Positions 1,999 to 33,935 of a stretch of DNA of 64,000 nucleotides are shown in pieces; the stretch's first letter is position 1; every line of letters starts with the position of its first letter. The stretch covers positions 4,206-68,205 of the forward strand of contig JBDKSM010000034.1 in the NCBI GenBank assembly GCA_039680665.1, written 5' to 3'. The notes under the pieces were generated by a model. The model was not told the DNA's origin and did not search any database. It worked only from the letters and a program-made list of their open reading frames with translations. The position numbers and the translations under genes were made by a program. The DNA comes from Syntrophaceae bacterium (lineage in GTDB: Bacteria; Desulfobacterota; Desulfomonilia; UBA1062).

Positions 1999-2697
1999 AT
2001 GAACAGGATGCTCTGTCTGGCGATTGTGTTGATTCTGCTCGGGCATACGCCTGCGGGTGCGGATGATGGCGGCTGGAAATTGGTTAAGGAACGCGACGCT
2101 ATCAGGGTCTATAACCGCGATGTCCCCGGCAGCGCTATCGATGAATTCAAGGGTGTGGGCATCGTGGACGCCCGGCTGGAGGTGCTGGCCGCGATCCTGC
2201 GCGATGTAGAGGCGGCCGAGGATTGGATGGCCGACACCGTGCATGCCGAAAAGATCAAGCAGCTCGAAGGCGAGGACATGATCGTCCTCAATATCACCAA
2301 GCTACCGTGGCCGCTCAAGCGGCGCGAATCCCTGGTGCATATCGTGGTCAGCATGGATTATAGGCGCGGATATGCCGTGATCGATATGCGGGGCATTGAC
2401 GATGCGCAGCTGCGGCCCGTGGCCGAAAACCATGTGCGCATGAAGTATGTGCATGCCGCCGTCATCCTGGAATATGTCGACCGGGAGCATACGCGCGTCA
2501 CCTATACGGCCAAGCTCGATCCGGGTGGCGTTATCCCCATTGCCGTTGCCAACCTGGTCGTGGTCAGGATACCCTTTGAATCCATCAGCGCCCTGCGCCG
2601 CTTGGCCGCTCAGGAAAAATTCGTCATTGCCGGCAGGAATTCCAGGGATCGCGCGATCATCGATGAAAATGTGGCCCTGGGCTATCTCAAACCCTAG
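1999..2697 (+). CDS. secreted START-domain lipid-binding protein
   Basis: Signal peptide ending AGA; WKLVKERDAIRVY, LPWPLKRRE, DPGGVIP..VAN. Confidence 0.85.
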   Translation: MNRMLCLAIVLILLGHTPAGADDGGWKLVKERDAIRVYNRDVPGSAIDEFKGVGIVDARLEVLAAILRDVEAAEDWMADTVHAEKIKQLEGEDMIVLNITKLPWPLKRRESLVHIVVSMDYRRGYAVIDMRGIDDAQLRPVAENHVRMKYVHAAVILEYVDREHTRVTYTAKLDPGGVIPIAVANLVVVRIPFESISALRRLAAQEKFVIAGRNSRDRAIIDENVALGYLKP

Positions 2698-12054: not shown

Positions 12055-12208
12055 GACCGGAAGGGAACCGGTTCTCACGTGGTGCCTCAAAAGGGTCGTA
12101 TAATTAATAAATTGCCCCGTTAATTCCACCTCCCTACCCCTGCTCGTATACCTGTTGTTAAACAGCATTTCATTTATCGTTTCGATTTGACGATATTTGA
12201 TTATAATC

Positions 12209-15200: not shown

Positions 15201-17125
15201 AAGGTCTCGATATCGGCGACCGCCTCTACTGCGGTCACAGCATCAATGCGCTGACCCATTGCCGTATCATCATGGGCGATAACATCGATGATGTTCTCAC
15301 GGATTACTCCCGCTTCAAGGATTTTATCGCGGGTATAAAAGACCCCTTCATCAGCAACATGTATAAGATTTTCACCCTGTTTTGCCTAAATATGCAAGGC
15401 GCCACGGATAACCCTTCAAGCCTCAAATCCGATGATTTCGACATCGACGAACAAATCGAGGTCATGCGCAAGAGCGGCAACCTGATGGATGTCTTCATCA
15501 TGCTCATGAGCAAGGAAAGGTCAAGTTACCTGTTCGGCCGGTATGAAGAAGCCTATCGGAGTGGCAACGAGATGGACACCATGCTGAAGGTCCCCACCGG
15601 GGCATATCATCTTCCGGAGCATTACTTCTACCGGTGCTTGAGCTTGCTGGCCGTCTATCCCGATAAGCCGCCGGCCGAACAGCGCACAATCCTCAGGATC
15701 TTAAAGCATCGGCTTAAAAAGATGAAACGCTGGGCCGAGATCTGTCCCGCCAATTATCAACCTAAATACCTGTTGATCATGGCGGAAGTGATGAACGCCA
15801 CCGGAGATCGCATGCAGACGCTCAAACTGTACGCGAGGGCCGTCAAGTCGTCGCGCGAGCATGCCTATACCAGCGTCGAAGCCCTTGCAAACGAACGGGC
15901 CGCCCTGTGTTACCTCAAAGAAGGCATTGAGGAGTCGGCGCGGGGCTACATGAGCGCGGCCCTGAGCGCCTATCAAAACTGGGGGGCAAAAGCCAAGATC
16001 ACCCAACTGCAACAAGCGTATCCGAACCTTGTGCGGGAGGAAAAAGTCACCCTGCCGGAAAAGGAAATCCACGCGATAAGTTCCGAGACGGGATCGGGCA
16101 TATCATTATCCATGCTGGACTTTGCCACGGTCATGCAGGCCTCGCATGCCATATCCAGTGAGATCATGCTCGAACGGCTGCTCCAGAAAATCATGAAATA
16201 TGCCGTCGTGAACGCCGGCGCCCAGCGGGGCTTCTTCATTCTCGATACCGAGGGCAGGCTCACCATCGAGGCCGATATGGAGCAGGGGGCCGATGAAGTG
16301 AGGGTCATGCAATCGATCCCGATCGAAGGCTGCAACGACTTGGCGGTTTCGATCGTGAACTATGTCCACCGCCGAGGCGAGAGCGTTATCTTGGGCAACG
16401 CCATGCAGGAAGGGGCCTTTACGCGTGACACCTACATCCTGAACAGCCGGTGCAAATCCATCCTGGCCGCGCCAATCATGAACAAAGGCAAGCTTTCCGG
16501 CATTCTCTACCTTGAGAACAATCTCTCGAGCAACGCCTTCACCACCGAACGTCTTGAGGTCCTGCGGCTGCTCTCGAGCCAGGCGGCCATATCGCTCGAA
16601 AATGCCCGGCTCTTTGAGCTTGCCACCACGGACGGCCTCACCAGACTCTTCGTGCACCGCTACTTCCAACTCCTGCTCGATGCCGAGATCCAAAAGTATC
16701 AGCAAGGCGGACAACCATTCTCGCTGGTCATGATGGACATCGATGATTTCAAGGTGATCAACGACACCTACGGGCATCAGTTCGGGGACAAGGTCCTGCG
16801 CAGACTGTCGCAGGGCATCAAGCGGGGCATCAGGCCCGTGGACATAGCCGCCCGCTACGGCGGCGAGGAATTCGTCCTGATCCTGCCCGAAACCGGAACG
16901 ACCCAGGCCATGTCCCAGGCCGAAAACATCCGCGCCATCATAGCCGGATTGCAGTTCGAGAACGACGGCCGGTCGCCCATAAACACCACCATCAGTCTGG
17001 GAGTCGCCACCTTCCCGTACCATGCAATGGACAAGGAAAACCTGATCAAATCGGCGGATCAGGCCTTGTACACGGCCAAACGCACCGGCAAGAACAGGGT
17101 GTGCGTGGGAGAGAGAACCAGGTAA
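12209..17125 (+). CDS. Ser/Thr kinase - P-loop ATPase - helical repeats - GAF - GGDEF diguanylate cyclase fusion
   Basis: HRDIKPSN, DFG, YMSPEQTGRMN; GEPGIGKS, LFLDDLQWAD; GAF GILYLENN...FT; RPVD I-site and YGGEEF. Confidence 0.93.
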   Translation: MWQFSGYSIVEQIDATYRSVVYRARRQPPPGDTVIIKALRTEHQSPSDIARLKHEYALIRSIDIEGIVKPLEVIEHENGLALVLEDFGAVSLKKIMHGSMDLECFLNLALRLSDILGRLHFSGITHRDIKPSNILLNQEQDVLKLTDFGIAAEVTRKNEEVYNPKVIEGTLAYMSPEQTGRMNCAVDYRTDLYSLGITFYEMLAGKVPFIAQDPLEIIYSHIAKAPVALHELKPEVPGMISSIIMKLLAKTPEERYQNSFGLMADLKLCLDQLQKSGRIESFELARHDISLKFNIPQVLVGREENLAVLFSAFERVSQGAVEIMLVKGEPGIGKSALINEISKPIVGKKGYFLSGKYDQLRRFVPYSSIIQAFQGLSRELLSESSDRIREWKEELLLALGPNGKIITDTIPEIGFIIGSQPDIPELGPEETQNRFDMVFKNFVKVFAGARHPLVLFLDDLQWADSASLRLIEAITTDKSLKHFLLIGAYRDNEVADYHILRLTMERIVKTGLTMNTLTLGPLREEDINRLIANFFRCEPAVSAPLATLIHAKTLGNPFFINQFLKTLYEENYLVLDADLGWTWDIEAIRQLKVTDNVVTLMAEKIARLPKEQLELIQVCACVGNRFEVETLAAAMDRPIDAILNTMDKLIQLGLINYGHGLYRFHHDRIHEATYSLIPPPDRQWIHYRIAGRLLDTTTPEKLSAKIFYIADQFNQAAGLIESRREKLVVAELNLKAGLKAKDATAYAAAANYLKAGMELLSAYAWTEDYELIYALCLERMECEYLIRNFEESEKLFHRITSNARNKIDRAKACHGMIVLYTNIGKLNEAIDLGIESLKFFDVHLSRNTGKLAVFKELMRIKLALRRIGIPNILSLPMMRDEDIIWTTELAGSIGMPAYVSNPNLFAVTVLKNLNLSLKHHGLIHVSGFGFMALASILGSGLGDFRSAHTIGEMALKLNEKMGEKRYACKVNFLFSFMILHWKNHLRECIPFFQKAYQEGLDIGDRLYCGHSINALTHCRIIMGDNIDDVLTDYSRFKDFIAGIKDPFISNMYKIFTLFCLNMQGATDNPSSLKSDDFDIDEQIEVMRKSGNLMDVFIMLMSKERSSYLFGRYEEAYRSGNEMDTMLKVPTGAYHLPEHYFYRCLSLLAVYPDKPPAEQRTILRILKHRLKKMKRWAEICPANYQPKYLLIMAEVMNATGDRMQTLKLYARAVKSSREHAYTSVEALANERAALCYLKEGIEESARGYMSAALSAYQNWGAKAKITQLQQAYPNLVREEKVTLPEKEIHAISSETGSGISLSMLDFATVMQASHAISSEIMLERLLQKIMKYAVVNAGAQRGFFILDTEGRLTIEADMEQGADEVRVMQSIPIEGCNDLAVSIVNYVHRRGESVILGNAMQEGAFTRDTYILNSRCKSILAAPIMNKGKLSGILYLENNLSSNAFTTERLEVLRLLSSQAAISLENARLFELATTDGLTRLFVHRYFQLLLDAEIQKYQQGGQPFSLVMMDIDDFKVINDTYGHQFGDKVLRRLSQGIKRGIRPVDIAARYGGEEFVLILPETGTTQAMSQAENIRAIIAGLQFENDGRSPINTTISLGVATFPYHAMDKENLIKSADQALYTAKRTGKNRVCVGERTR

Positions 17126-20498: not shown

Positions 20499-21788
20499 TC
20501 AGTTGCGATTATCAAAAAGCCGCTGCGACTTCCTGCCCGTGCGGGGCAGCTCGCCATCGCCCACGATCTCGATCGTACCGCTGACCAGGAGCGATTTGCG
20601 CATGTCGGTGGCGATGGCCTTGGCTATTGCCGCGTCGCCGTCCGCGCCGCCGTCCGGGGCGCGCTCGACCTTGACGGTCATGTAGTCCTTGCCGTCGTCT
20701 AAGCGCTCCAGCACGATCTGGTACTCGCTGCCGATGCCGGGATGGCGGCCTAAGATCTCTTCGATGTGGCTGGGGTAGATATTGACCCCGCGAATTATGA
20801 ACATGTCGTCCGAGCGGCCCGTGATGCGGTCATGCCGGGGCAAAACCGATCCGCAGGCGCACGCTCCGGGCAAGAGCCGGGTCAGGTCGCGCGAGCGGTA
20901 GCGCACCAGCGGGGCGCCTTCCTTTTTAAGCGTGGTGTAGACCATCTCGCCCACTTCGCCTTCCTTGACCGGTTCCAGGGTCTGGGGGTCGAGGATCTCG
21001 AGGATATAGTAATCCGGGAAATAGTGGATGCCCGCATGGTGGACGCAGTCCAGGCCGGTGCCGGGGCCGTAGACCTCGGTCAGTCCGGGGATGTCGAAGA
21101 CGTGCTCGGCATGGAAAAGGGCGCGGATCTTGTCGCGCATGGCGTCGCTGGAGCGCTCGGCGCCCATGATGACCTTGCGGACGTTCAGTTTGCCCGAGAT
21201 GCCGGCCTTCTCGGCCTCTTCGGCCAGGAGCAGGGCCATGGAGGCCGTGGAGCAGATGACCGTGGGCTGGAAATCTTCCAGGAACTGCAGGTGCATCTCC
21301 GTATTGCCGGGACCAACGGGTAAGGCCATGGCGCCGAAGCGCTCGCACCCGTTCTGAAAGCCCACGCCCGCGGTCCAGACCCCGTAGCCCACGCAGATCT
21401 GCACCCGGTCCAAGGCATTCAGATCCGCCAGCTCGTAACAGCGGGCGAACATGTGGGCCCAGTCATCGATGTCCTTGGCCGTGTAGGCCATGACCTTGCG
21501 CTTGCCGGTCGTGCCCGACGAGGCGTGGATGCGCACGATTCTATCAAACGGCACGGCGCGCAAGGGAAATGGATAGCCTTCCTGCAGGTCCTGGGCCGTC
21601 ACGAAGGGCAGGCGTCTGAGGTCGTCCAGGCTCCGGATTGCATCCGGCTTCACCCCGGCGGCATCGAAGCGGCCACGATAGAAATCCGAGCCGTGGTAGG
21701 CGTGTTGGACGGTCCACTTGAGGCCTTGGAGTTGGAGGGCCTCAAGCTCTGCTTGGGTTCGATACTGCGGCATGAAAGTTCCGGCCAT
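20499..21788 (-). CDS. paaK: arylacetate (phenylacetate)--CoA ligase, distal copy
   Basis: LQEGYPF, RIHASSGTTGK, GLTEVYGPG, PLVRYRSRDL, ITGRSDDMFIIRGVNIYP. Confidence 0.92.
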   Translation of the reverse strand: MAGTFMPQYRTQAELEALQLQGLKWTVQHAYHGSDFYRGRFDAAGVKPDAIRSLDDLRRLPFVTAQDLQEGYPFPLRAVPFDRIVRIHASSGTTGKRKVMAYTAKDIDDWAHMFARCYELADLNALDRVQICVGYGVWTAGVGFQNGCERFGAMALPVGPGNTEMHLQFLEDFQPTVICSTASMALLLAEEAEKAGISGKLNVRKVIMGAERSSDAMRDKIRALFHAEHVFDIPGLTEVYGPGTGLDCVHHAGIHYFPDYYILEILDPQTLEPVKEGEVGEMVYTTLKKEGAPLVRYRSRDLTRLLPGACACGSVLPRHDRITGRSDDMFIIRGVNIYPSHIEEILGRHPGIGSEYQIVLERLDDGKDYMTVKVERAPDGGADGDAAIAKAIATDMRKSLLVSGTIEIVGDGELPRTGRKSQRLFDNRN

Positions 21789-22330
21789 TATTGTCCTCCT
21801 TGAGCGTCGTGTTGTTGCATCTGTGTGTATCCGATGGCAATGGCCTTGATATTGTCGGCCAGCGAGCGTTTGGGCGAGATATCCTGCATGACCTGGTGGG
21901 CCTCGTCCAAACGTATGCCCAGCAATTTGAGGACGAATCCAAGCATGATCATGTTCACGCTGCCGGGCATGCCCTCGGCCAGGGCCAGTCCTGTGGCGTC
22001 CACGGTGAAGTCGAAGGCGTCCTTGGCCGGCGCGTTCACGGCCGCGATGCCGCCAGTTTTAAGCATGTGGAGAAGACTTAAGCTCTCGGCCGCATCCAGC
22101 CCGATGAGGATGTCGGCGCTGCCGGCCGGTATGAGCGGCGAGGCAAAGCTGCCGATCTTGAGGTTGGCCGTCACCGTGCCGCCGCGCATGGCCATGCCGT
22201 GGGTCTCGGAGGCGATCACCGGGTACCCCTGGCGTACGGCGATCTCGGCCAGGGCCCGGGCCAGCAGCAGGATGCCCTGGCCGCCGGTGCCCACCATGAA
22301 TATCTGTCGGTCTACTTGAGCAGTGTCCAT
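21788..22330 (-). CDS. iorB: indolepyruvate:ferredoxin oxidoreductase beta subunit
   Basis: GTGGQGILL, SETHGMAMRGGTV, SPLIP.GSAD, NMIMLG. Confidence 0.92.
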   Translation of the reverse strand: MDTAQVDRQIFMVGTGGQGILLLARALAEIAVRQGYPVIASETHGMAMRGGTVTANLKIGSFASPLIPAGSADILIGLDAAESLSLLHMLKTGGIAAVNAPAKDAFDFTVDATGLALAEGMPGSVNMIMLGFVLKLLGIRLDEAHQVMQDISPKRSLADNIKAIAIGYTQMQQHDAQGGQ

Positions 22331-23451
22331 TTTCCGTTCTTTACCTGTACCATGACCATGGAGTCCACGCCAAGCCCGCAATGGTCCTGGGCGCTCATGG
22401 TGTAGATGCCGCTGACGCCGATGAAACCCCGTACCCCTTCGATGGCCTTGGCCAGAGTGAGGCCGCCTTGGCCGCCCGATTTCTTGAGCCCCAGCGCCAG
22501 GAGCTGCATGGCATCCCAGGCATAGCCTGAGTGGGCGCCGGTCTTGCCGATCTTTTTCACGTTTTCATAATCGTTCTTGAACTTGGCCAGCACCGGGAAC
22601 TGAGGATCGTTCTTGGCGATCTGGTCTAAGACCATGAGCTTGACGGTGGGCATGATGGTGCCCTCGGCCGCGGCTCCAGCAAGCTCCAGGTATTTGGGAT
22701 CGGCCTGGCCGTGACAGTGGAGGAGCGGCATGGACATCCCCAACTGGCGAAAGTTCTTGGTCACGATGGCCCCTATCCCGCCGATGGTCCAGCACACCAC
22801 GGCCTGCGGACCCGTCTGTTTGATCTTGGTGAGCTGCACGCTTACGTCGCTGTCGGTGGTGTCAAAGACCTGGGCGCCCACGATCTCGATGCCGAAGTTC
22901 CCGGCGAGCTTTTCCAGGGAGGCCTTGCCTTCCTGCCCGAAATTATCCGAGGCGGTGATGATGGCGATCTTCTTGATGCCCTTGTCTTTGAGATAGGCAT
23001 AGGTGCGTTCCACGGCCGTGACGGTCTTTTGCGGGCTCTTGAACATGAACTGGCGCACCGGCTCCACCGGCGGGGTGCCGCCTACGAAGCCCACGGTAGG
23101 GGTCTGTGCGTCCTGGATGATCTTCAAGACCGCCATGGCCGAGCCCGTGCCCGTGGGACCGGCGATGGCGACAACCTTCTCGCGCTCGATCAGGCGTTTG
23201 GCCTCCAGGGCGGCCTTACCGGGGTTGCTCTGCGTATCGGCGAAAACGAGAGCTATGGGACGGCCTTGAATACCGCCCCCGGCGTTGATCGCGTCGGCCG
23301 CCATCATGGCCACGGCCTTGGAGGGCTCGCCGATGTGCCCTTCGGGACCTGATAGTCCCACCAGCACCCCGATCTTGACGGGCTGGGCCGCCAAAAGCGG
23401 GGAAACCATACCCAACAGCGCCAGCATACATACAAAAGATAATCTCTTCAT
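22312..23451 (-). CDS. ABC transporter periplasmic binding protein (LivK/HAAT family, aromatic-acid type)
   Basis: Signal peptide; VKIGVLVGLSG, INAGGGIQGRPI, GVSGIY.MS..DHCGL; GGAGG RBS. Confidence 0.9.
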   Translation of the reverse strand: MKRLSFVCMLALLGMVSPLLAAQPVKIGVLVGLSGPEGHIGEPSKAVAMMAADAINAGGGIQGRPIALVFADTQSNPGKAALEAKRLIEREKVVAIAGPTGTGSAMAVLKIIQDAQTPTVGFVGGTPPVEPVRQFMFKSPQKTVTAVERTYAYLKDKGIKKIAIITASDNFGQEGKASLEKLAGNFGIEIVGAQVFDTTDSDVSVQLTKIKQTGPQAVVCWTIGGIGAIVTKNFRQLGMSMPLLHCHGQADPKYLELAGAAAEGTIMPTVKLMVLDQIAKNDPQFPVLAKFKNDYENVKKIGKTGAHSGYAWDAMQLLALGLKKSGGQGGLTLAKAIEGVRGFIGVSGIYTMSAQDHCGLGVDSMVMVQVKNGKWTLLK

Positions 23452-23483
23452 AAAACCTTCCTCCTTTTATGAGGGGAGCCCCC

Positions 23484-24797
23484 TCAAGCTTGTAAGAACC
23501 TGCGATCAATGATCTTGGTGCGATGCTCCACCACCCCGGAAAGGCCCATGGGCTCAGCACATATGAGCCGGATCGTGGAGCCCAAGAGATCGATGAGCTG
23601 GGTGCGTACGGCGTGCACCAAGGTTTCCTTCAGGCGTTCTCGGGAATCATCGGGGCCGCTCTCGGGCAGCTCGAGGCGCACCTCCACGATATCATTGGTT
23701 GCTTCCCTGGTGACGATGACCTGGAAGCGGGGCCGCTCGCCCACTAAAGGCGCTAGGATATCCTCGATCATGCGGGCCGAGATCTCGATACCCGAGACCT
23801 CGATAGAGTCGTCCGTGCGGCCGGTAATGCGCGCCATGCGCCTGCCCGGCGCGAGCCGTCCGCAGGGGCACTCATCCTCGATCAGGGTCGTGAGGTCGCC
23901 GGTGCGGTAGCGGATGAGCGGCATGGCCTCCTTGGTGATGGTGGTCAGGACCAGTTCGCCCTCTTGCCCCGGTCCCAAAACCTCGCCCGTGGCCGGGTCG
24001 ATGACCTCCGGGATTACCTGGTCCTCGAAGATGTGCAGGCCGCCGCGGCTATGGCACTCGGCCGCCACGGCCGAGCCGTAGATCTCGCTCAAGCCGTAGT
24101 GATCATAGGCCTCGATGCCCAGCGCGGCCTCGATCAAGGCGCGTGTGTCCTCGCTCCACGGTTCGCCGCCCAAGAGCCCCTTCTTGAGCGGTATCGCGTC
24201 GGGGCCAAGCCTTAAGGCCTGGAAGGTCTCCATCAGGGCCAGGGCATAACAGGGCGTGGCGATAATAACCGTGGCGCCGTAGTCCATGATCATGCGCGCA
24301 TGGCGTTCCAGGTCCACGCTGGAGGTGGGGATCAGGGTCACGCCGAGTTCCTCGGCCCCGTGATGCAGACCGGCGCCGCCGGTAAAGAAGCTCGATCCAA
24401 AGGCGATGTGCACGATATCACCGGGGCCGATGCCCGCCAGCTTGAGCACGCGGCCGCTGACCTCGCGCCAGTGGCGCATGTCGTTGCGGTTGAAGCCCGC
24501 CACGGTGGGCCGGCCCGTGGTGCCGGCCGAGGAATGGATGCGCATGATTTCGGGGAGCTTGACCGCGAACATGCCATAGGGGTAGTTGTCGCGCAGCGTC
24601 TTCTTGGTGGTGTAGGGCAGGCGGGTGAGGTCGGTCAGGGACCCGACATCCTCGGGCACGAGCCCCAGTTGGTTGAAGAGCTCGTGGTAATAGCGGACGT
24701 TGCGATAGGCCCGGTTGAGCGTGGCCTGGAGACCTTCGAGCTGCAGCTGGCGCAGCTCTTCCATAGCGTTTGTGGCTTCAATGCGTCCGGAAGACAT
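23484..24797 (-). CDS. paaK: arylacetate (phenylacetate)--CoA ligase, proximal divergent copy
   Basis: LRDNYPYGMFAV, RIHSSAGTTGRPT, YGLSEIYG, EAMPLIRYRTGDL, ITGRTDD. Confidence 0.9.
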   Translation of the reverse strand: MSSGRIEATNAMEELRQLQLEGLQATLNRAYRNVRYYHELFNQLGLVPEDVGSLTDLTRLPYTTKKTLRDNYPYGMFAVKLPEIMRIHSSAGTTGRPTVAGFNRNDMRHWREVSGRVLKLAGIGPGDIVHIAFGSSFFTGGAGLHHGAEELGVTLIPTSSVDLERHARMIMDYGATVIIATPCYALALMETFQALRLGPDAIPLKKGLLGGEPWSEDTRALIEAALGIEAYDHYGLSEIYGSAVAAECHSRGGLHIFEDQVIPEVIDPATGEVLGPGQEGELVLTTITKEAMPLIRYRTGDLTTLIEDECPCGRLAPGRRMARITGRTDDSIEVSGIEISARMIEDILAPLVGERPRFQVIVTREATNDIVEVRLELPESGPDDSRERLKETLVHAVRTQLIDLLGSTIRLICAEPMGLSGVVEHRTKIIDRRFLQA

Positions 24798-25521
24798 CTC
24801 TCCCTCCTGCCTGGCCGAGATAGGCGCGCACGATCTCGGGATTGTCCTTCAGGTCGGTGGCGCTCCCGCTGAACACCACCTTGCCCGTCTCCATCACATA
24901 CCCCCTCTCCGCGATCTCCAGGGCCAGCCGGCCGTTTTGCTCGACTAAGAGGATGGCGGTGCCCTGTTGGGCGCGCAAGGAGCGCAGGCGTTCCAATAAC
25001 ATCTTTATGATGGCCGGGGCAAGGCCGCTGGAAAGCTCGTCCAAGAGCAGCAGCCGCGGGCGCGTGGTGAGCGCCCGGGCGATGGCGAGCATCTGCTGTT
25101 CCCCGCCCGAGAGCGTTCCGGCGAGCTGGTGTTGCCGCTCGGCCAGGGCCGGGAAGATTGACAGGCTCTCCTGAACCAGGGCCTTTTCCCGCGGTCCCAG
25201 GCGGAACTTGCGGTGGGCCAGGGCCAGGGTGATGTTCTCGCGCACGGTCAGGCTCCTGAAGAGCCCGCGGTCTTCGGGCACCAACGCCACACCCTGCCGG
25301 ATGGCATCACGCGGGTCATGCGCGGCCAGCGCCTTCTGATCCAGGATGATCTCGCCGCCCCGGATGGGCAAGATGCCGGCGATGGTCTTGAGCAAAGTGG
25401 ACTTGCCCGAGCCGTTGGCCCCGAAGACCACCACGATCTCGGAAGGACCGACGTGCAGCGAGACGTTCTTGAGGATGTGCAGGGCCCCATAGTAGGCGTT
25501 GACGTTCGTCAGCCTGAGCAC
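24778..25521 (-). CDS. livF: ABC transporter ATP-binding protein LivF-like
   Basis: GANGSGKS, GTLSGGEQQMLAIARAL, LLVEQN. Confidence 0.9.
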   Translation of the reverse strand: MLRLTNVNAYYGALHILKNVSLHVGPSEIVVVFGANGSGKSTLLKTIAGILPIRGGEIILDQKALAAHDPRDAIRQGVALVPEDRGLFRSLTVRENITLALAHRKFRLGPREKALVQESLSIFPALAERQHQLAGTLSGGEQQMLAIARALTTRPRLLLLDELSSGLAPAIIKMLLERLRSLRAQQGTAILLVEQNGRLALEIAERGYVMETGKVVFSGSATDLKDNPEIVRAYLGQAGGRDVFRTH

Positions 25522-25524
25522 CTT

Positions 25525-26274
25525 TTAGTCCCCCAGGTAGGCGGCGATGACCGCCTGATCGGTCTGGATCTGCTCGGGCGTGCCCTGGGCGATGCAGGCC
25601 CCGCGGTCCATGACGATCACCGTATCCGAGATACCCATGATGAGCTGCATGTCGTGGTCGATAATGAAGATGGTGGTGCCGCGTGTGTTCACCGCCTTTA
25701 AGAGCGCGGTCAGGTCCTCCACCTCGTGTGAGTTCAGGCCCGCGCCGGGTTCGTCTAAGAGCAGGAGCTTGGGATCGGCCGCCAGGGCCCGCGCGATCTC
25801 CATGAGCCGGAGTTGCCCGAAGCCCAGGGCCGCCACGGGTGCGCCGGCCGCCTCAGCCAGCCCGACCAGCTCAAGCGCGGCCTGAGCCTCGGCGCGCGCC
25901 TGCCGTTCGTGCCTGCGGTAGCCGGGCGTGCGCGCCAGGGCGGGCAACATGTGGTTGCAGTAGGCCCGGCTGGCGCCGATCAATACGTTTTCCAGCACGC
26001 TCATGCCGCCAAAGGCCTCCACGCCCTGGAAGGTGCGGATGCAGCCCAGACGGGCCACGCCGTGCGGGCGCCTGTGCGTGATGTCCTTGCCTTCAAGCCG
26101 GATGCGGCCGTGATCGGGCTTTAAAAAACCCGTGATCATGTTGAAGGTGGTGGTCTTGCCCGCGCCGTTGGGCCCGATCAGGGCCGTGATGCCGCCTTCT
26201 TTCACGCACAGGTTCAGGCCGTCCACGGCCTTGAGCTTGAAAAACGTTTTGGACAGGCCTTCAACCCTGAGCAC
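25525..26274 (-). CDS. livG: ABC transporter ATP-binding protein LivG-like
   Basis: LIGPNGAGKTT, RTFQ, LLLLDEPGAGL, DHDM, VIAAYLG; GTG start after GGAGG inferred. Confidence 0.9.
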   Translation of the reverse strand: MLRVEGLSKTFFKLKAVDGLNLCVKEGGITALIGPNGAGKTTTFNMITGFLKPDHGRIRLEGKDITHRRPHGVARLGCIRTFQGVEAFGGMSVLENVLIGASRAYCNHMLPALARTPGYRRHERQARAEAQAALELVGLAEAAGAPVAALGFGQLRLMEIARALAADPKLLLLDEPGAGLNSHEVEDLTALLKAVNTRGTTIFIIDHDMQLIMGISDTVIVMDRGACIAQGTPEQIQTDQAVIAAYLGD

Positions 26275-27220
26275 GCGCACCTCCGGGTCTGATGAGTCCC
26301 TGCGGGGCATAGATGAGGGTGGCGATCAGCACCACCCCGTAGATGACGGCTTCGAAATCGGTCGGATTGGCCAGCGGCACCCAGGCGGAGGCGGCCCTGA
26401 GAAGCTCGGGCAGCCAGGTTACGGCCAGGGCGCCGATGACCCCGCCCAAGAGGCTCATGGAACCGCCGATCACCACCATGACGATGAACTTGACCGAGAG
26501 CATCACCGAGGCCACATCGTCGGGGTTGATATAGGCCAGGGGCGAGCAGAAGCAATAGAGCCCGCCCGCCAGACCGGCTAGGCAGGCGCTCAAGACAAAG
26601 ATCTTGAGCTTGGCGGCCTCGAGGTCGATGCCCAGCGATGATACGGCCCGGGGGCTGGTATGCACGGCCTGCATGAGTGCCCCGAAGCGCGAGCTAATCA
26701 GGGACTCGCACAGGACATACACCACGATCAGCGCCGCCGTAACCAGGACATGGCGGCTGATATCATTATCTATGGTAACACCCATGATCTCCAGCGAGGG
26801 GATGGCGAAAATTCCTCCCGGGCCGCCGGTGGCGCCGAAGGGGTTGGCCCTCAAGATCGCATACACGATCACGCCGATGCCCAGCGTGGCCATGGCGAGG
26901 TAGTGCTCCTTGAGGCGTACGGTGGGCAGGCCCACCAGTAAAGCCACACCGGCGGGCAGGAGACAAGAGAGCCCCAGTCCGAGCCAGGGGTTCAGACCGA
27001 AGTTGACGCTGCCTATGGCCGCGGCATAGGCGCCCAGGCCGAAGAAGGCCGCATGGCACAGCGAGATCTGGCCGGTGTAGCCTAAGAGGAGGTTGAGGCT
27101 CAAGGCCACGACGGCGCTGATGCCGGTCATGGTCATGAGCGAGAGGTAGTAGGACAGCTCTCCCCGGCAGAGAACCAGCGGCGTGAGCATGAGCACCACC
27201 AGGATGAAGAGCCTCTTCAC
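26261..27220 (-). CDS. livM: ABC transporter permease LivM-like
   Basis: LNLLLGYTGQISLCHAAFFGLGAY, RLKEHYLAMATLG, MVVIGG. Confidence 0.9.
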   Translation of the reverse strand: MKRLFILVVLMLTPLVLCRGELSYYLSLMTMTGISAVVALSLNLLLGYTGQISLCHAAFFGLGAYAAAIGSVNFGLNPWLGLGLSCLLPAGVALLVGLPTVRLKEHYLAMATLGIGVIVYAILRANPFGATGGPGGIFAIPSLEIMGVTIDNDISRHVLVTAALIVVYVLCESLISSRFGALMQAVHTSPRAVSSLGIDLEAAKLKIFVLSACLAGLAGGLYCFCSPLAYINPDDVASVMLSVKFIVMVVIGGSMSLLGGVIGALAVTWLPELLRAASAWVPLANPTDFEAVIYGVVLIATLIYAPQGLIRPGGARAQG

Positions 27221-28074
27221 AGCCGCCCCCCTAAGAGGCCCTGCGGCCGGGTATAGAGGATGACGAGCACCAGAGTAAAGGCGATGACCTCTTTATAGCC
27301 CGAGAGCACGGCGCTGCCGCAGGTTTCGGCGATGCCGATCACCAGGCCGCCCAGCACCGCGCCGGGCAGGTTGCCCATACCGCCCAGCACCGCGGCGCAG
27401 AAACCTTTGAGCCCCAGCTCGGTGCCTTTGAGCCAGCTCATCTGGGTGAGCGGGGTGATGAGCGCCCCGGCCGCGGCGCCGATGGCGGCGCTTAGAGCAA
27501 AGGCCAAAATCGGCAGCGTCTGCGATTCCACGCCCAGGTTGCGGATGGCCTGCCGGTCCTCGGCCATGGCGCGCAGCGTCGCCCCCAGCAGGGTGTATTT
27601 CAGAAACAGACCCAAGGCCAGCACGATTGCGGCGCCGAGGGCCAGGATCCAGAGCGTCTGGGAGGGGATCGTGGCCCCCAGCGCCGTGACGGCCGTCGGT
27701 CCGGGCAGGGCCGGCAGGTGAAACTCGTCCTTGGTGACGGCCCCCACCAGGGCCTTGAGGATGAACGAAACCCCGATGGTGATGATGATGAGCGTGGTCA
27801 TGCCGGAGCCACGCGCCGGGCGTATGGCCAGGCGTTCCACGGCCATGCCGGCCAGGGCGGTCAGGCCGATGGCCAGACCCATGGCCGCGGCCAGTGGCAG
27901 GCCCTGGAACTGGTGCAGCCACACCGCCAGCATGCCGCCCAGCATCACGAATTCGCCCTGGGCGAAATTGATGATCCCGCTCGTATTGTAGGTCAGAGAG
28001 AAACCGACGGCGATCAGGGCATACAGGGTCCCGATGCCGATGCCGGTCAGCAGGTACTGGAGCAGGACGCTCAT
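27217..28074 (-). CDS. livH: ABC transporter permease LivH-like
   Basis: YALIAVGFSL, INFAQGEFVMLG, GLKGFCAAVLGGMG; ATGA overlap with iorA stop. Confidence 0.9.
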   Translation of the reverse strand: MSVLLQYLLTGIGIGTLYALIAVGFSLTYNTSGIINFAQGEFVMLGGMLAVWLHQFQGLPLAAAMGLAIGLTALAGMAVERLAIRPARGSGMTTLIIITIGVSFILKALVGAVTKDEFHLPALPGPTAVTALGATIPSQTLWILALGAAIVLALGLFLKYTLLGATLRAMAEDRQAIRNLGVESQTLPILAFALSAAIGAAAGALITPLTQMSWLKGTELGLKGFCAAVLGGMGNLPGAVLGGLVIGIAETCGSAVLSGYKEVIAFTLVLVILYTRPQGLLGGRL

Positions 28075-29882
28075 GCCTTGTTTCCGGCCACGATGGCATG
28101 CTTCGGGCAGGCGTGCACGCACACGCCGCACCCGATACACAGGGTCAGGTCGATCGCCATCTTGGTCTCGCCCGGGATGAGCGCCGGGCATTCGAACTCC
28201 TTGACGCAGTAGCCGCACAAGGTGCACTCGTCGGTGATGGACATGGCGTAGGAGGTCTGACGCGCCAAGGCCTGCCGGTCGCGGATGCAGGGGTGCCGGG
28301 CGATGACGGCGGCTACACCTTCCTCTTCGGTGCGGGTATAGGCCTGCCTGACCGCCCGGGTAAAGCCCGGGAGGTCGTAGGGATCATGGGTGATGATGGT
28401 CCGTACACCGCAGCCCTTCAGGACCTCTTCCAGCTGGAGTGTCCGTCCGTCGTAGTCGCTCGTCACCCCTCCCGTGGCCGGGGTCGGCTGGTGGCCGGTC
28501 ATGGCCGTGGTGGCGTTGTCCAGGATCACCAGCACGAAGCGCGCCCCCGTGACCAAGGCGTTGATGGTGGGCGGAATGCCGGCATGGAAATAGGTGGAAT
28601 CGCCGATGATGGCCGCGATGGGCGGCGGCGTGGCCGTGTGCTTGAAGGCGTGGTAAAACCCCGCGGCCTGGGATACGGCCGCGCCCATGCACAGGCAGGT
28701 ATCCACGGCACCTAAGTTGAGCCCCAGGGTATAGCAGCCGATGTCCGAGGTGTAGATCCCCTTGGGCAGGGCGCGCTTGACGGCATAGAAGGCGCCGCGA
28801 TGCGAGCAGCCCGCGCACAGCGAGGGCCGCCGTCCTTGGCGGGCTTCACCGGCCTCGACCTGGGGCGCTGCACCGCTCACCGTGTCCAGCACCGTCATCA
28901 CGATCTCGGGGTTCAGCTCGCCCGCATTCGGCACGGTAGCGTCCATCCGGCCGCGCACGTTGGTGCGGCAGGGGAACTGCTGCTCGATGACCGGCTCGGT
29001 CTCCTCCACGACCAGCACGGTCGCGTGCGCCTCGGCCAGGCGATTCAGCTCGGCCGGGTCCATGGGGTAGGGCATGTCCACCTTGTAGAGGCAGATATCC
29101 GGCCAGCGCTTGAAGCCGGTCAGGACATCGAGCAAGTAGGCATAGGCCACGCCCGAGGCAACGACCGCGATGCGTTCGGCGCCGGTGCCCTTGGTGAGCT
29201 TAGGCCTAGCCCAGGGGTGGCGCATCAGGGTGGCAATCTTGGTATTGAGCTCATGGTGGAGCGCCAGGCGCGGTCCGGGCGTGGCGGCCCAGCGCGCCGG
29301 GTCCTTGTGGAAGACCGGTTCGGCCATGCTGGCAGAATCCAGAGCGGGCATCTCCACGAGCTGGCGCGCGTGGCAGACGCGCGTGGTGGGCCTCAAGATC
29401 ACGGCCGTGCGGTACTCTTCGGAGAAGGCGAAGGCCTCGATCGTCATGCGTAGGGCCTCGGCCGGGCAGCTGGGATCGAGGACCGGCAGCTTGGCGAACA
29501 GGGCGAAGAGCCGGGTGTCCTGCTCGGTCTGGGAGGAATGCGGCCCCGGGTCGTCGGCCACGATGATGAGCATGCCGCCCACGGTCCCCATGTAGGCCGC
29601 GCTCATGGCCGGGTCCGAGGCCACGTTGAAGCCCACCTGTTTCATGGCCACGGCCGAACGCCGGCCGGCTATGGCATTGGCGTAGGCCACCTCGAAGGCC
29701 GTCTTCTCGTTGATGGACCACTCCACGTGCACGGGCAGTCCATGGGCCTTGACCGCGCGAAAGACCGTCTCGCAGATTTCGGAGGCCGGCGTGCCCGGGT
29801 AGGACGCCACCACGCCGGCGCCAGCGGACAGGATGCCATAGGCGATTGCTTCGTTCCCCAGCAGGATCTTCGAACCGTTCAT
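28071..29882 (-). CDS. iorA: indolepyruvate:ferredoxin oxidoreductase alpha subunit
   Basis: LLGNEAIA, YPGTPASE, EWSINEK, DDPGPHSSQTEQD, LCAGCSHR, SDIGCYTLG, IGDSTYFH, LDN.TTAMTGHQP, C-terminal 2[4Fe-4S]. Confidence 0.95.
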   Translation of the reverse strand: MNGSKILLGNEAIAYGILSAGAGVVASYPGTPASEICETVFRAVKAHGLPVHVEWSINEKTAFEVAYANAIAGRRSAVAMKQVGFNVASDPAMSAAYMGTVGGMLIIVADDPGPHSSQTEQDTRLFALFAKLPVLDPSCPAEALRMTIEAFAFSEEYRTAVILRPTTRVCHARQLVEMPALDSASMAEPVFHKDPARWAATPGPRLALHHELNTKIATLMRHPWARPKLTKGTGAERIAVVASGVAYAYLLDVLTGFKRWPDICLYKVDMPYPMDPAELNRLAEAHATVLVVEETEPVIEQQFPCRTNVRGRMDATVPNAGELNPEIVMTVLDTVSGAAPQVEAGEARQGRRPSLCAGCSHRGAFYAVKRALPKGIYTSDIGCYTLGLNLGAVDTCLCMGAAVSQAAGFYHAFKHTATPPPIAAIIGDSTYFHAGIPPTINALVTGARFVLVILDNATTAMTGHQPTPATGGVTSDYDGRTLQLEEVLKGCGVRTIITHDPYDLPGFTRAVRQAYTRTEEEGVAAVIARHPCIRDRQALARQTSYAMSITDECTLCGYCVKEFECPALIPGETKMAIDLTLCIGCGVCVHACPKHAIVAGNKA

Positions 29883-29931
29883 TGTGCCCTCATATGGTAC
29901 TCAATTCGTTGGTGATAATGCCCTGTTACAA

Positions 29932-29959
29932 TAAAAAAGGCGACCTTTAAGGTCGCCTT
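29932..29959 (-). terminator. attenuator intrinsic terminator (3:4 helix)
   Basis: Minus-strand RNA AAGGCGACC-UUAAA-GGUCGCCUUUUUUA, 50 nt upstream of the iorA start. Confidence 0.9.
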
Positions 29960-29987
29960 GCCCGTTTTTGCCGCAGTAGTCGACCTT

Positions 29988-30038
29988 TTATGCGTCCGTG
30001 TTACGCCACCAGGAGAGTCGACCATGATGTTTCTTCAT
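29988..30038 (-). CDS. TrpL-like attenuator leader peptide MKKHHGRLSWWRNTDA
   Basis: Hand translation ATG AAG AAA CAT CAT GGT CGA CTC TCC TGG TGG CGT AAC ACG GAC GCA TAA; tandem Trp at codons 10-11 followed by Arg, as in E. coli TrpL. Confidence 0.85.
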   Translation of the reverse strand: MKKHHGRLSWWRNTDA

Positions 30039-30197
30039 GGAAGAACATACAACCGTATCGCGCCGCGTTTGTCAAATGGAAAAGTGTAATGTGGCAATAT
30101 CAGGACATTCGGCGCTTTTCATGGCGGTGCTCCTGTAGTATAGGCCTTATGGTGCCCGGACTTATCGGGATTTGAATGCAAAAAAGGAGGAAACACC

Positions 30198-30989
30198 ATG
30201 AGTTACGAGACCATCACCTATAAAATCATCGAGCCGGGAATCGGCCTTTTGAACCTGAACCGGCCGCAGGCCTATAATGCGGTCAACCGGCTCATGATGC
30301 GGGAGCTTAACTCTTTCTGGGCCGAGCGATGTCGGGACAACACCACTAATGTGATCATTCTGCAGGGCTCCGGCAAAGGCTTCTGCGCCGGGCTCGATCT
30401 CAAGGACAGCGCCGAGGCGGTTGTCAACCTGAATATGCAGGAGGCCTTGGATTACCAGGCCGGACTCACGGGCATCGTCGCCGCCATGCGCAAGGCCCCG
30501 CAGCCGATTATCGCGTTGGTGCACGGCGCGGCCATGGGGCTGGGCTTCAGCTTTACACTGGCCGCGGACATGCGTGTCATCGCCGAGAACGCTCGTTTCT
30601 CGGCGGCCTACATCAATGTGGGCTTGGGCGGCGCGGACATGGCCTGCAGCTATCTGCTGCCGCGCATGATCGGCACCGGCAGGGCCTATGAGATGATGCT
30701 GACCGGAGAGACCCTCACGGCGGCCGAGGTCATGGGTCTGGGCCTGGCCAGCCGCATGGTGCCCCGCGACGATCTCATGGAAACGGCCCTGGGGCTTGCC
30801 CGCGCCATGCAAACCAAGAACCCGCTGGGCTTAAGGTTGACCAAGCAGGCCATCAATACCAGCCTCAATGCCGGCAGCCTCGAACAGGCCATCCAGACGG
30901 AAAACCTCACCCAGGTCTTCCTGGCCGCCAAGGCCATGCTCGAATCGGGCCGGGCGCTTAGGTCCACCCTAGAGAACAAATCCATATGA
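30198..30989 (+). CDS. enoyl-CoA hydratase/isomerase family protein
   Basis: LNRPQAYNA, FCAGLDL, PQPIIALVHGAAMGLG, ADMRV; AAGGAGG RBS. Confidence 0.92.
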   Translation: MSYETITYKIIEPGIGLLNLNRPQAYNAVNRLMMRELNSFWAERCRDNTTNVIILQGSGKGFCAGLDLKDSAEAVVNLNMQEALDYQAGLTGIVAAMRKAPQPIIALVHGAAMGLGFSFTLAADMRVIAENARFSAAYINVGLGGADMACSYLLPRMIGTGRAYEMMLTGETLTAAEVMGLGLASRMVPRDDLMETALGLARAMQTKNPLGLRLTKQAINTSLNAGSLEQAIQTENLTQVFLAAKAMLESGRALRSTLENKSI

Positions 30990-31163: not shown

Positions 31164-31261
31164 GGATAAAGGCGTACCCGAGACCCGATCGGGTTTGGGC
31201 TTGAAAAGACAGGGCCTAAATGCGATATAGCATCGAATTCCGATTATGGAGAGGTATCGCG

Positions 31262-32920
31262 ATGAGAAGCGACAATGCCAAGAAATCCCTGGAAAAGGCC
31301 CCGCACCGTTCGCTCTTGAAGGCGCTGGGACTGACGGATGAAGAGATCAGCAGGCCTTTCGTGGGCGTGGTCAACTCGGCCAACGAGCTCATACCCGGGC
31401 ATATGCACCTGAACCAGATCGTCTCGGCGGTCAAGGCCGGGGTGCGTCTGGCGGGCGGCACGCCCTTTGAGTTCTCGGTCATCGGCATCTGCGACGGCAT
31501 CGCCATGTACCATGCCGGCATGCACTACTCGCTGCCCTCGCGCGAGATCATCGCGGACTCCATCGAGCTCACCGTTATGGCGCATGCCTTTGATGCCTTG
31601 GTTTTCGTGCCCAACTGCGACAAGATCGTGCCGGCCATGCTCATGGCGGGCTTGCGCTTGAACATCCCGTCCGTGGTGGTCTCGGGCGGACCCATGCTGG
31701 CCGGACGTTTCCGGGGCAAAAGCGTGGACCTGATCAGCGTCTTCGAGGGCGTGGGCCGGGTCAAGGCCGGGACCATGACCGAGGACGAGCTCAAGGAGCT
31801 GGAAGAGTGCGCCTGCCCGACCTGCGGCTCGTGCTCCGGGATGTTTACGGCCAACTCCATGAACTGCCTGACCGAGGCCCTCGGTCTGGGTCTGCCCGGC
31901 AACGGCACGGTGCCGGCGCCCTTTTCCGAGCGCATCCGCCTGGCCAAACAGGCCGGCCAGCAGGTCATGGAGCTCTTAGCCAAGGATATCAAACCTCGCG
32001 ACATCGCCACGCCCGCGGCCTTCAGGAACGCCATCGCCGTGGACATGGCCCTGGGCTGCTCGACCAATACGGTCCTGCATGTCCCGGCCGTGGCGTACGA
32101 GGCCGGCATTGAGCTCGATCTCATGGACTTCGACGACATGAGCCGCAAGGTGCCGCACCTGTGCAGCATGTCGCCGGCCGGACCGCATCATATCGAGGAC
32201 CTCTACCAGGCGGGCGGCATCCAGGGCGTGATGCGGCGCTTGAACGAGCTGGGCGTGCTGGACACCGGCGTTATGACCGCTACGGGCGGGACGCTTGAGG
32301 AAAATTTGGCAGCGGCCCGGATCAATGATGAAGACGTCATCCGTCCCATCACAAAGGCCTATCATAGCGAGGGCGGCATCGCCATTTTGAAAGGCACGCT
32401 GGCCCCTGACGGCGCGGTGGTCAAGCAGTCCGGCGTGGCCCCCGAGATGATGCGCCGCGAAGGTGTGGCGCGGGTCTTCGACGGCGAGGAGGCGGCCGTC
32501 AAGGTGATTCTGGCGGGCGGCATAAAGGCGGGCGATGTCGTCATCATCCGCTATGAGGGTCCCAAGGGCGGACCGGGTATGCGCGAGATGCTCACCCCCA
32601 CTTCGGCCATCGCCGGCATGGGTCTGGACAAGGACGTGGCCCTGATCACGGACGGACGCTTCAGCGGCGGCACGCGCGGGGCGGCCATCGGGCACTGTTC
32701 GCCCGAGGCGGCCGAGGGCGGCCCCCTTGCGTTTGTAAAGGACGGGGATATTATTAGTATCGATATACCCGGGCGCAGGCTCGATCTCAAGGTGGACGGC
32801 TCTGAGTTGGAACGCAGAAAAACTACCTGGCGGCGCCCCACCCAAAGCTTGACCGGGGTGCTGAAACGCTATGCGGAGTTAAGCCTCTCGGCCGACAAGG
32901 GGGCGCGGTACCGAGACTGA
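31262..32920 (+). CDS. ilvD: dihydroxy-acid dehydratase
   Basis: [56 protein letters not shown]. Confidence 0.97.
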
Positions 32921-32921
32921 T

Positions 32922-33935
32922 ATGAAACAGGCGCGGTTCTGGACACAGCAACAAGGCGGGGCGGTGCAGTGCCGGCTTTGCCCGCACGGCTGTATCATCA
33001 AAGAGGGCCACTCCGGCATCTGCGCGGTCAGGCGCAACGAGGGCGGAATCCTCTACAGCCTGGTATGGGGCAAGGCCATCGCCGCCAACGTCGACCCGAT
33101 CGAAAAGAAGCCTCTCTTCCATTTCCTGCCCGGCTCGCGCTCGTATTCCATCGCCACCGTGGGCTGCAACCTGCAGTGCGAGTTCTGCCAGAACAGCGAT
33201 ATCTCCCAGTACCCGCGCGAGGAAGGGCGCATCACGGGCCGCGATTTCCCGCCCGAGGATGTCGCCGCCGAGGCAGAGAAGCACCACTGCGCCTCCATCT
33301 CGTACACCTATACCGAACCCACCATCTACCTGGAGTATGTCCTGGATACGGCTGCAAAAGCCAAGACCCGGCAAATCGCCAATGTGCTAGTCACCAACGG
33401 TTATACCACCGCGGACATCATTAGGGACGAGTTTCCGGGCCTGATCGACGCGGCCAATGTCGATCTCAAGGCCTTCACGGAGAGGTTCTACAAGGAGCTC
33501 TGCAAGGCACGGCTCAAGCCCGTGCTGGATGCCATCCAGGCCTACCATGACAGCGGGGTCTGGATCGAGATCACCACGCTCTTGATCCCGGGTGAAAACG
33601 ACTCCGAGCAGGAACTCAAGGATATCGCGGCCTTCATCAAATCCGTGAGCGAAGACATCCCCTGGCATGTTAGCCGCTACTACCCGCGCTACCACTACGA
33701 CAAGGCCCCGCCGACCTCGGTCGATGCATTGGAGCAGGCACGCGCTATCGGACTGGCTTCAGGCCTGAAATTCGTATACACCGGGAATGTCCAAGGCCGG
33801 GCCAGCGAGCACACCTATTGTCCGCAGTGCGGGGCAACCGTGATCGAGCGCATGGGCTTTACAATCCAAGCCCGGCGCATGGTGGATGGCTGCTGCGCCC
33901 AGTGCCGGACTCCCATAGCGGGGAGGTTCGCGTAA
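32922..33935 (+). CDS. amrS: AmmeMemoRadiSam system radical SAM enzyme
   Basis: CRLCPHGC, DPIEKKPLFHF, GCNLQCEFCQN, YTYTEP, EITTLLIPGEND, TYCPQCG. Confidence 0.92.
   Translation: MKQARFWTQQQGGAVQCRLCPHGCIIKEGHSGICAVRRNEGGILYSLVWGKAIAANVDPIEKKPLFHFLPGSRSYSIATVGCNLQCEFCQNSDISQYPREEGRITGRDFPPEDVAAEAEKHHCASISYTYTEPTIYLEYVLDTAAKAKTRQIANVLVTNGYTTADIIRDEFPGLIDAANVDLKAFTERFYKELCKARLKPVLDAIQAYHDSGVWIEITTLLIPGENDSEQELKDIAAFIKSVSEDIPWHVSRYYPRYHYDKAPPTSVDALEQARAIGLASGLKFVYTGNVQGRASEHTYCPQCGATVIERMGFTIQARRMVDGCCAQCRTPIAGRFA

Follow-up and report, generated by a model that had tools for sequence, protein, structure and literature searches.

In Escherichia coli trpL, tandem Trp codons are followed by an Arg codon, the stop codon lies beside RNA segment 2, and the transcript can fold into alternative 1:2, 2:3 and 3:4 helices. 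A Trp attenuator with a leader peptide, trpL/rnTrpL, is described upstream of trpE(G) in Sinorhizobium meliloti in the excerpted part of PMC6614838. Excerpts of two further reports, on mycobacterial polycysteine short open reading frames (ORFs) and on the leaderless mRNAs of Deinococcus deserti, place a regulatory short ORF at the 5′ end of the transcript, from where it governs the following operon by attenuation (10.1101/834739, PMC4007540). As summarized in part of PMC4162585, Methanococcus maripaludis makes aromatic amino acids from aryl acids by a route that depends on indolepyruvate:ferredoxin oxidoreductase (IOR) (Porat et al.), and a methanogen is the only organism in which this route has been demonstrated genetically. 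Here we describe a leader of the trpL kind in front of iorA, the gene for the IOR alpha subunit, in a 64,000-nucleotide stretch of DNA from a Syntrophaceae bacterium (the window). We consider it very probable that this leader is a ribosome-mediated leader-peptide attenuator that senses charged tRNA-Trp and gates a nine-gene iorA operon whose role is most likely biosynthetic.

The leader lies on the minus strand (Table 1). A reading made earlier from the sequence alone (the sequence-only reading) had placed a 16-codon ORF at 30038-29988, with Trp-Trp at codons 10-11 followed by Arg, and each of these coordinates holds on the minus strand. The same is true of the pairing elements that it named: GGTCGACT at 30023-30016, repeated at 29985-29978; AAGGTCG at 29987-29981 with CGACCTT at 29955-29949; and the U-tailed terminator, whose stem we place at 29959-29937, with a T-run to 29933. 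In a terminator scan, this stem has 10 pairs, six of them G-C, and a T tail. RNAfold of 30045-29925 returns a 9-bp 1:2 helix (30024-30016 with 29985-29977) together with the terminator, at a minimum free energy (MFE) of -36.9 kcal/mol (z = -2.72; one of 200 shuffles folds equally well).

We then folded the RNA with a ribosome held at the Trp codons, masking it to 13 nt past the first Trp codon and cutting it before the terminator 3′ arm. Equilibrium folds of the whole leader cannot show antitermination, and the transcript was therefore cut at this point. Under this constraint the MFE structure of the window is the 2:3 helix that the sequence-only reading had postulated. It joins 29987-29981 and 29979-29978 to 29957-29949 in nine pairs with one bulged A, takes up 9 of the 10 nt of the terminator 5′ arm, and is reached by 0.7% of shuffles. 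Of 13 aligned leaders folded with a stalled ribosome, at least 11 likewise have the 2:3 antiterminator as their MFE structure. From the first Trp codon it is about 24 nt to the start of segment 2, and from the leader stop 0-6 nt; in every aligned sequence segment 2 adjoins the stop. With textbook footprint sizes this is the geometry of trpL, in which segment 2 is masked once the ribosome reaches the stop and exposed while it sits on the Trp codons.

In the proposed mechanism, transcription would start at or beside the leader ATG. When Trp-tRNA is plentiful, the ribosome would reach the TAA at 29990-29988 and its footprint would cover segment 2 (29987-29977); the terminator (29959-29937 plus the U-run) would then form, and RNA polymerase would halt 50 nt before iorA. 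When Trp-tRNA is scarce, the ribosome would stall at UGG-UGG (30011-30006), covering segment 1; segment 2, left exposed, would pair with 29957-29949 ahead of synthesis of the 3′ arm, and polymerase would read through. With no ribosome on the leader, 1:2 and 3:4 would both form, and transcription would terminate.

The arrangement is conserved in the window's own family (f1). A protein search over 41 related genomes found 10 iorA orthologues in f1 (63-100% identity) and 16 in its sister family, f2 (45-50%). A short WW, WWW or WWWW ORF and a terminator (-15.7 to -20.3 kcal/mol) stand before iorA at 10 of 10 f1 loci, which bears out the conservation expected from the sequence-only reading; the pair is absent from all 16 f2 loci. 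Public metagenome-assembled genome (MAG) records yielded three further leaders, and we built a covariance model, R1, from an alignment of 13 leaders. One full-length R1 copy (E <= 6e-20) occurs in 18 of 52 f1 genomes, and full-length copies occur in none of 70 f2 genomes. Every copy, including eight not previously seen, is directly upstream of an iorA-like ORF. Across a spread sample of 151 genomes of the phylum, R1 matches two alone, the window's genome (G000) and G009, both f1 genomes that carry a copy; weak class-level matches (E > 1e-4) were set aside as terminator-only or chance. As a sequence family, the leader RNA is thus confined to f1 by these searches.

What is held constant in the 18 copies is the regulatory frame: TTGAC, the distance to the start codon, the Trp run, a stop just before (A/G)GGTCGACTTC, and the terminator. 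The ORFs have 10-18 codons, with WW, WWW or WWWW in every copy, and the 18 genomes encode 13 different peptides in which the in-frame Trp run varies from two to four codons. All 18 sequences share GGTGG (alignment positions 66-70); the T that leads it is replaced by C in one row, and the flanking codons vary. A run of two to four Trp residues inside otherwise free peptides is, judged on these alignments, the signature of codon-starvation sensing and not of a functional peptide. It is this conservation, and not the window sequence alone, that excludes a chance origin.

The RNA structures are conserved to different degrees. In the 18-sequence alignment, 157 of 162 terminator cells are paired (96.9%), and four pairs have changed on both sides, a score that none of 500 shuffles equals. 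The antiterminator comprises 12 pairs around one unpaired position, with 79.3% of cells paired in a structure derived from one of the aligned sequences, which favours it somewhat; with the partner slid by 1-3 columns the figure falls to 37-55%. Nine of 500 shuffles score as high for covariation. Segment 2 keeps the motif (A/G)GGUCGACUUC in relatives. At one position there is a three-way covariation: segment 3 has A in the window and its nearest relative and G in the others, with U then in the 3′ arm, and the segment 2 U pairs with either A or G. Taken together, family conservation, terminator compensation, the in-register 2:3 helix and the position of the stop support the trpL-type attenuator that the sequence-only reading had proposed.

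The promoter is conserved with the leader. All six letters of TTGACA are invariant in the 13-row alignment, and in the 18-row alignment the final A is nearly so, row G003 being gapped there. Counted from the first T of TTGACA, the start codon lies at 36-38 nt in all 13 leaders. The sequence-only reading had paired TTGACA (30075-30070) with TATGTT (30049-30044) as a -10 element. Both hexamers are where it put them, 20 nt apart, but TTGTAT, 17 nt after TTGACA, fits the family alignment better: relatives have TTTAAC, TTTTAT or TTTAAA at this position, and G23, T24 and T25 of the alignment are invariant. No Shine-Dalgarno (SD) sequence can be read ahead of the leader ATG in the window or in the f1 leaders. 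Transcription is likely to begin at the leader ATG or 1-2 nt before it, making the leader ORF leaderless, because the fixed distance from TTGACA to the start codon fits a 17-nt spacer and a hexamer at the TTGTAT position. The suggestion of a leaderless start in the sequence-only reading therefore gains from both the constant geometry and the missing SD.

Downstream of the leader are nine tightly packed genes: iorA, four ATP-binding cassette (ABC) transporter genes, paaK1, a binding-protein gene, iorB and paaK2. At 7 of the 12 WW-leader loci checked, the operon is iorA-iorB-paaK2 only, and the other five, the window counted, have the ABC cassette. In the seven orthologous loci iorB directly follows iorA. 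The third gene of the core operon is paaK2, conserved at 72-84% identity across orthologous loci, and the solved structure closest to the paaK1 product is 2y4o, a phenylacetate-CoA ligase (1.6e-102). With iorA-iorB-paaK2 as the conserved core, the ABC cassette is optional, and the conserved target of the leader is IOR together with an AMP-forming aryl-acetate-CoA ligase. In a comparison of the window with L003, L005, L006, L007, L009, L036 and L039, the segment holding the ABC, paaK1 and binding-protein genes (22312-28227) looks like an insertion between iorA and iorB.

That the signal is Trp starvation makes the operon most likely biosynthetic. A ligase that spends ATP to AMP makes a CoA ester rather than harvesting one. 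In the pathway we propose, the cell would import indole-3-acetate, the AMP-forming PaaK-type ligase would activate it, IOR would reductively carboxylate the activated aryl acid to indolepyruvate, and transamination would yield Trp. Old labelling work is said to have seen an aryl-acid route in rumen bacteria.

The best surviving alternative, which we nevertheless judge improbable, accepts the attenuator and has the operon import Trp or other amino acids through a Liv-type ABC transporter under Trp starvation, with IOR and PaaK as catabolic passengers. The permeases and ATPases do match LivH/M/G/F-type models, and HAAT transporters carry amino acids in model organisms. However, the seven WW-leader loci that lack the ABC cassette make the enzyme pair the conserved target, and turning on a Trp-degrading enzyme when Trp is scarce would be counter-productive. 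The best solved relatives of the binding protein are chains deposited under the name 'extracellular ligand-binding receptor' or as putative branched-chain binding proteins, several of which are probably aromatic-acid binders.

The window's genome holds further leaders of the same design. We scanned the G000 assembly (4.2 Mb) for a promoter, short ORF and terminator in succession and obtained 21 matches, of which four stand out by terminator strength and aromatic runs. Only two of the 21 contain WW, the iorA leader and the leader of trpEGDC. The latter (MMKGIHMFEQKNWWRWQVNSRDGGLP) has the same TTGACA-to-ATG spacing as the iorA leader; its contig, C84, ends after trpC. The other two are rich in Phe and Tyr. 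One (MQTRALTKFYFYFCFFRPGRCP) precedes a paralogous operon, iorA2-iorB2-paaK-ACT, and the other (MRNYACIQAYRYVYYYRKKRCP) precedes an operon that lacks an IOR gene and encodes a binding protein, two permeases, two ATPases and a PaaK-like ligase. Among 23 iorA2 loci read in f1, 17 have a Phe/Tyr-rich leader and terminator, five have none by the threshold applied, and one is cut by a contig end. The stop codon of the Phe/Tyr leaders falls inside an invariant GCCCATAGG, complementary around one bulged A to the terminator 5′ arm, GGCCATGGGC. The Phe/Tyr leaders of f1 also keep the promoter-to-ATG geometry, two of them with a perfect TATAAT 7 nt before the ATG.

These sister leaders bear on a second alternative, in which free Trp would stall the ribosome on the leader, as in TnaC, and switch on a catabolic IOR operon in Trp excess. 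IOR is usually annotated as catabolic, and the leader does contain Trp, yet we regard this account as very unlikely. Leaders of the TnaC type have a conserved peptide, a fixed spacing from the key Trp to the stop, and Rho-dependent termination. Here, peptide sequence and length are unconserved outside a W run that itself ranges between two and four; segment 2 lies against the stop, so that a ribosome held there would favour the terminator; the terminator is intrinsic, not Rho-dependent; and the trp biosynthetic operon of G000 has the same kind of leader. Least credible of all is an account in which an untranslated WW ORF stands by chance beside a hairpin that is an ordinary terminator or is controlled by a protein or ligand (T-box, riboswitch or TRAP-like): although leader translation is read from sequence and the hairpin scores as a terminator on the plus strand as well, the neighbour at 30198 runs divergently, so that the hairpin lies in the 5′ leader of iorA and ends no gene on either strand, cmscan of 29600-30400 finds no Rfam family, T-boxes and riboswitches included, as good as E = 0.3 and, at E <= 10, chance-level small-RNA matches to the terminator hairpin alone (best E 0.34), 18 genomes preserve the start, the frame, the W run and the stop position although other codons differ, and the paralogous leaders keep their Phe/Tyr identity.

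Because the R1 family is confined to f1, we traced analogous Trp leaders elsewhere through the IorA protein. Beyond the class, in other families sampled from the phylum, 7 of 26 iorA orthologues (49-55% identity) are preceded by a W-run leader and a strong terminator, one of the seven terminators having been recognised by eye alone. Their runs include FWGWWWW, WRWW, FWWCWWW, NWWRWWW, FWWW and NWW. These leaders carry an SD and share no sequence with R1. In a tree built from 62 IorA proteins, the split between IorA1 and IorA2 is fully supported. Trp leaders are restricted to IorA1, where they turn up in at least five places and require at least five changes of label; the link between Trp leader and IorA1 has therefore been gained or retained repeatedly. 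Phe/Tyr leaders are restricted to IorA2, a group with just five rows in the tree. As separate observations, three of the phylum Trp leaders end in GVR(S/T)AH(Q/R) and have a terminator arm, GCCGTGGGCGG, that resembles the Phe/Tyr scaffold; and upstream of an iorA orthologue in a Desulfobacterales MAG (L041), a short ORF with two spaced Trp codons (..FWKQW..) stands with a terminator-like hairpin and is a possible Trp leader of a weaker kind.

Anaerobes commonly carry IOR-PaaK-ABC clusters, and the usual annotation of these is degradation of amino acids or aromatic acids. With a Trp switch on iorA, Phe/Tyr switches on its paralogue and a Trp switch on the trp operon, we argue instead that the clusters turn aryl acids into aromatic amino acids. 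On balance we lean, with some reserve, towards an aromatic amino-acid starvation regulon in Desulfomonilia and, by convergence, in other Thermodesulfobacteriota, in which IOR, PaaK and ABC paralogues would each be gated by a leader rich in their own product. If so, bacterial IOR would act as a biosynthetic reductive carboxylase salvaging indoleacetate, phenylacetate and hydroxyphenylacetate from the environment, and the leader peptide would read out the substrate specificity of otherwise indistinguishable paralogues. Leaders would then predict pathway direction and substrate for each paralogue, giving a simple sequence rule for annotating uncultured genomes.

Several points weigh against the attenuator and its biosynthetic operon as proposed here. 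The transcription start, leader translation, the terminated leader transcript and the response to Trp are parts of it that we infer from sequence, and the -10 element is a poor match to the E. coli consensus. Metatranscriptome contigs from four runs of a single wastewater study match parts of iorA (28500-29905) at 100% identity; they leave the leader (29928-30197) uncovered and so are uninformative on its transcription, and being assembled contigs they carry no readable starts, ends or strand. As to the RNA, the case for the antiterminator comes chiefly from sequence conservation, its covariation being modest. Equilibrium folds of the full leader give the terminator as the MFE structure in most sequences, whether or not a ribosome sits on the Trp codons. 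Antitermination therefore has to depend on kinetics, which is the accepted view of E. coli trp. The 1:2 pairing of the sequence-only reading stands for the window, where the 9-bp helix is part of the MFE fold, and is clear in only part of the family: in the nearest clade GUCGAC has become GCCGGC in segments 1 and 2 together, and in several relatives the helix is missing or forms in another register or with other partners. As to function, the full-length TIGR03336 match of iorA scores 608.4 bits, below the equivalog cut-off of 650.9, so the family of IorA is certain and its substrate is not. That IOR runs biosynthetically we infer from how the operon is regulated and from the AMP-forming ligase. 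Finally, G000 also carries trpEGDC and trpB, so that the IOR route would serve salvage, in response to the signal that also governs de novo synthesis, and would not be the sole route to Trp.

Table 1. Features of the iorA leader and operon in the window, and of related leaders (positions without a handle are those of the window).
Feature	Position	Strand	Basis or remark
-35 hexamer TTGACA	30070..30075	-	TTGAC invariant in 18/18 aligned leaders
Probable weak -10 hexamer TTGTAT, 17-nt spacer	30047..30052	-	family alignment fit
Leader ORF, 16 codons + TAA, MKKHHGRLSWWRNTDA	29988..30038	-	ATG to TAA
Tandem Trp codons TGG TGG (predicted sensor), codons 10-11	30006..30011	-	then CGT (Arg)
Segment 1, UGGUCGACU	30016..30024	-	predicted to pair with segment 2
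Segment 2, AAGGUCGACUA	29977..29987	-	right after the stop; predicted to pair with segment 1 or the terminator 5′ arm
Segment 3, AAGGCGACCUU, terminator 5′ arm	29949..29959	-	predicted antiterminator partner of segment 2
Segment 4, AGGUCGCCUU, terminator 3′ arm + U-run	29933..29947	-	terminator scan
SD GAGGG of iorA	29887..29891	-	4 nt before the ATG at 29882
iorA, IOR alpha subunit, 603 aa	28071..29882	-	TIGR03336 IOR_alpha, E 1.2e-182
ABC transporter: livH-like and livM-like permeases, livG-like and livF-like ATPases	24778..28227	-	profile matches
paaK1, aryl-acetate (phenylacetate-type) CoA ligase, AMP-forming	23484..24797	-	TIGR02155, E 4e-121
Periplasmic substrate-binding protein (Peripla_BP_6, HAAT family)	22312..23451	-	
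iorB, POR-family gamma/beta subunit of IOR	21788..22381	-	PF01558, 7.4e-33
paaK2, second PaaK-type CoA ligase	20499..21788	-	PF00501 + PF14535
Enoyl-CoA hydratase family gene	at 30198		divergent from iorA
trpE-trpG-trpD-trpC leader, MMKGIHMFEQKNWWRWQVNSRDGGLP	C84, L031 ~2360-2560	+	WWRW; terminator -23 kcal/mol
iorA2-iorB2-paaK-ACT leader, MQTRALTKFYFYFCFFRPGRCP	C133, L033:6696-6856	-	FYFYFCFF; terminator follows
Tyr-rich leader, MRNYACIQAYRYVYYYRKKRCP	C35, L032:8156-8316	-	YRYVYYY; terminator follows
Trp-leader loci outside f1	L112, L123, L124, L126, L130, L132, L109		

Three further observations concern the surroundings. Downstream of the divergent enoyl-CoA hydratase gene, 31220-33935 on the plus strand holds ilvD (dihydroxy-acid dehydratase) and a gene for an AmmeMemoRadiSam radical SAM enzyme. 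The window also contains a 1642-aa ORF at 12197-17125 on the plus strand. Within iorA, one metatranscriptome contig (run X3) joins 28579 to 28781, skipping 201 nt (67 codons); this could be a strain variant or an assembly artefact.

Our literature search, with subscription journals and supplements outside its reach, found no paper linking indolepyruvate or iorA to a leader peptide, attenuation or a T-box, and Rodionov et al. 2004 (PMC545781) contains no mention of tryptophan, attenuator, indolepyruvate, leader peptide or aromatic. Among the systems with which we opened, S. meliloti has an attenuator whose released RNA and peptide also act in trans, and our comparison covers the cis leader of the window. 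The mycobacterial and Deinococcus cases differ from the window in phylum (here Desulfomonilia, Thermodesulfobacteriota), amino acid and target, and the leaderless start here is a probable one, read from promoter geometry. With M. maripaludis the window would share the biosynthetic use of IOR to turn aryl acids into aromatic amino acids; unlike that archaeon, which has no attenuator, the evidence here is regulatory, and each paralogue has a leader for a different amino acid.

Closest in lineage, geometry and logic are the Phe/Tyr leaders of f1, with TAG within segment 2 (GCCCAUAGG) and a partner 5′ arm (GGCCAUGGGC). They differ from the window leader in using Phe/Tyr codons and another scaffold sequence, and in controlling iorA2-iorB2-paaK-ACT or an operon of substrate-binding protein, ABC and paaK-like genes. 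Closest in design is E. coli trpL: like it, the window leader has a short ORF with tandem Trp then Arg, predicted four-segment alternatives, a stop codon beside segment 2 and an intrinsic terminator before the first structural gene. Unlike it, the window leader has no sequence homology to it (no Rfam match beyond chance, the Trp leader included, at E <= 10), its ORF seems to begin at the 5′ end of the transcript without an SD, and it is predicted to control iorA-iorB-paaK and an ABC transporter instead of trp genes. The interest of the locus lies in that target, in the paralogue-specific leaders and in the biosynthetic role that they imply for bacterial IOR. The switching mechanism is classical; the target of the attenuator is new.

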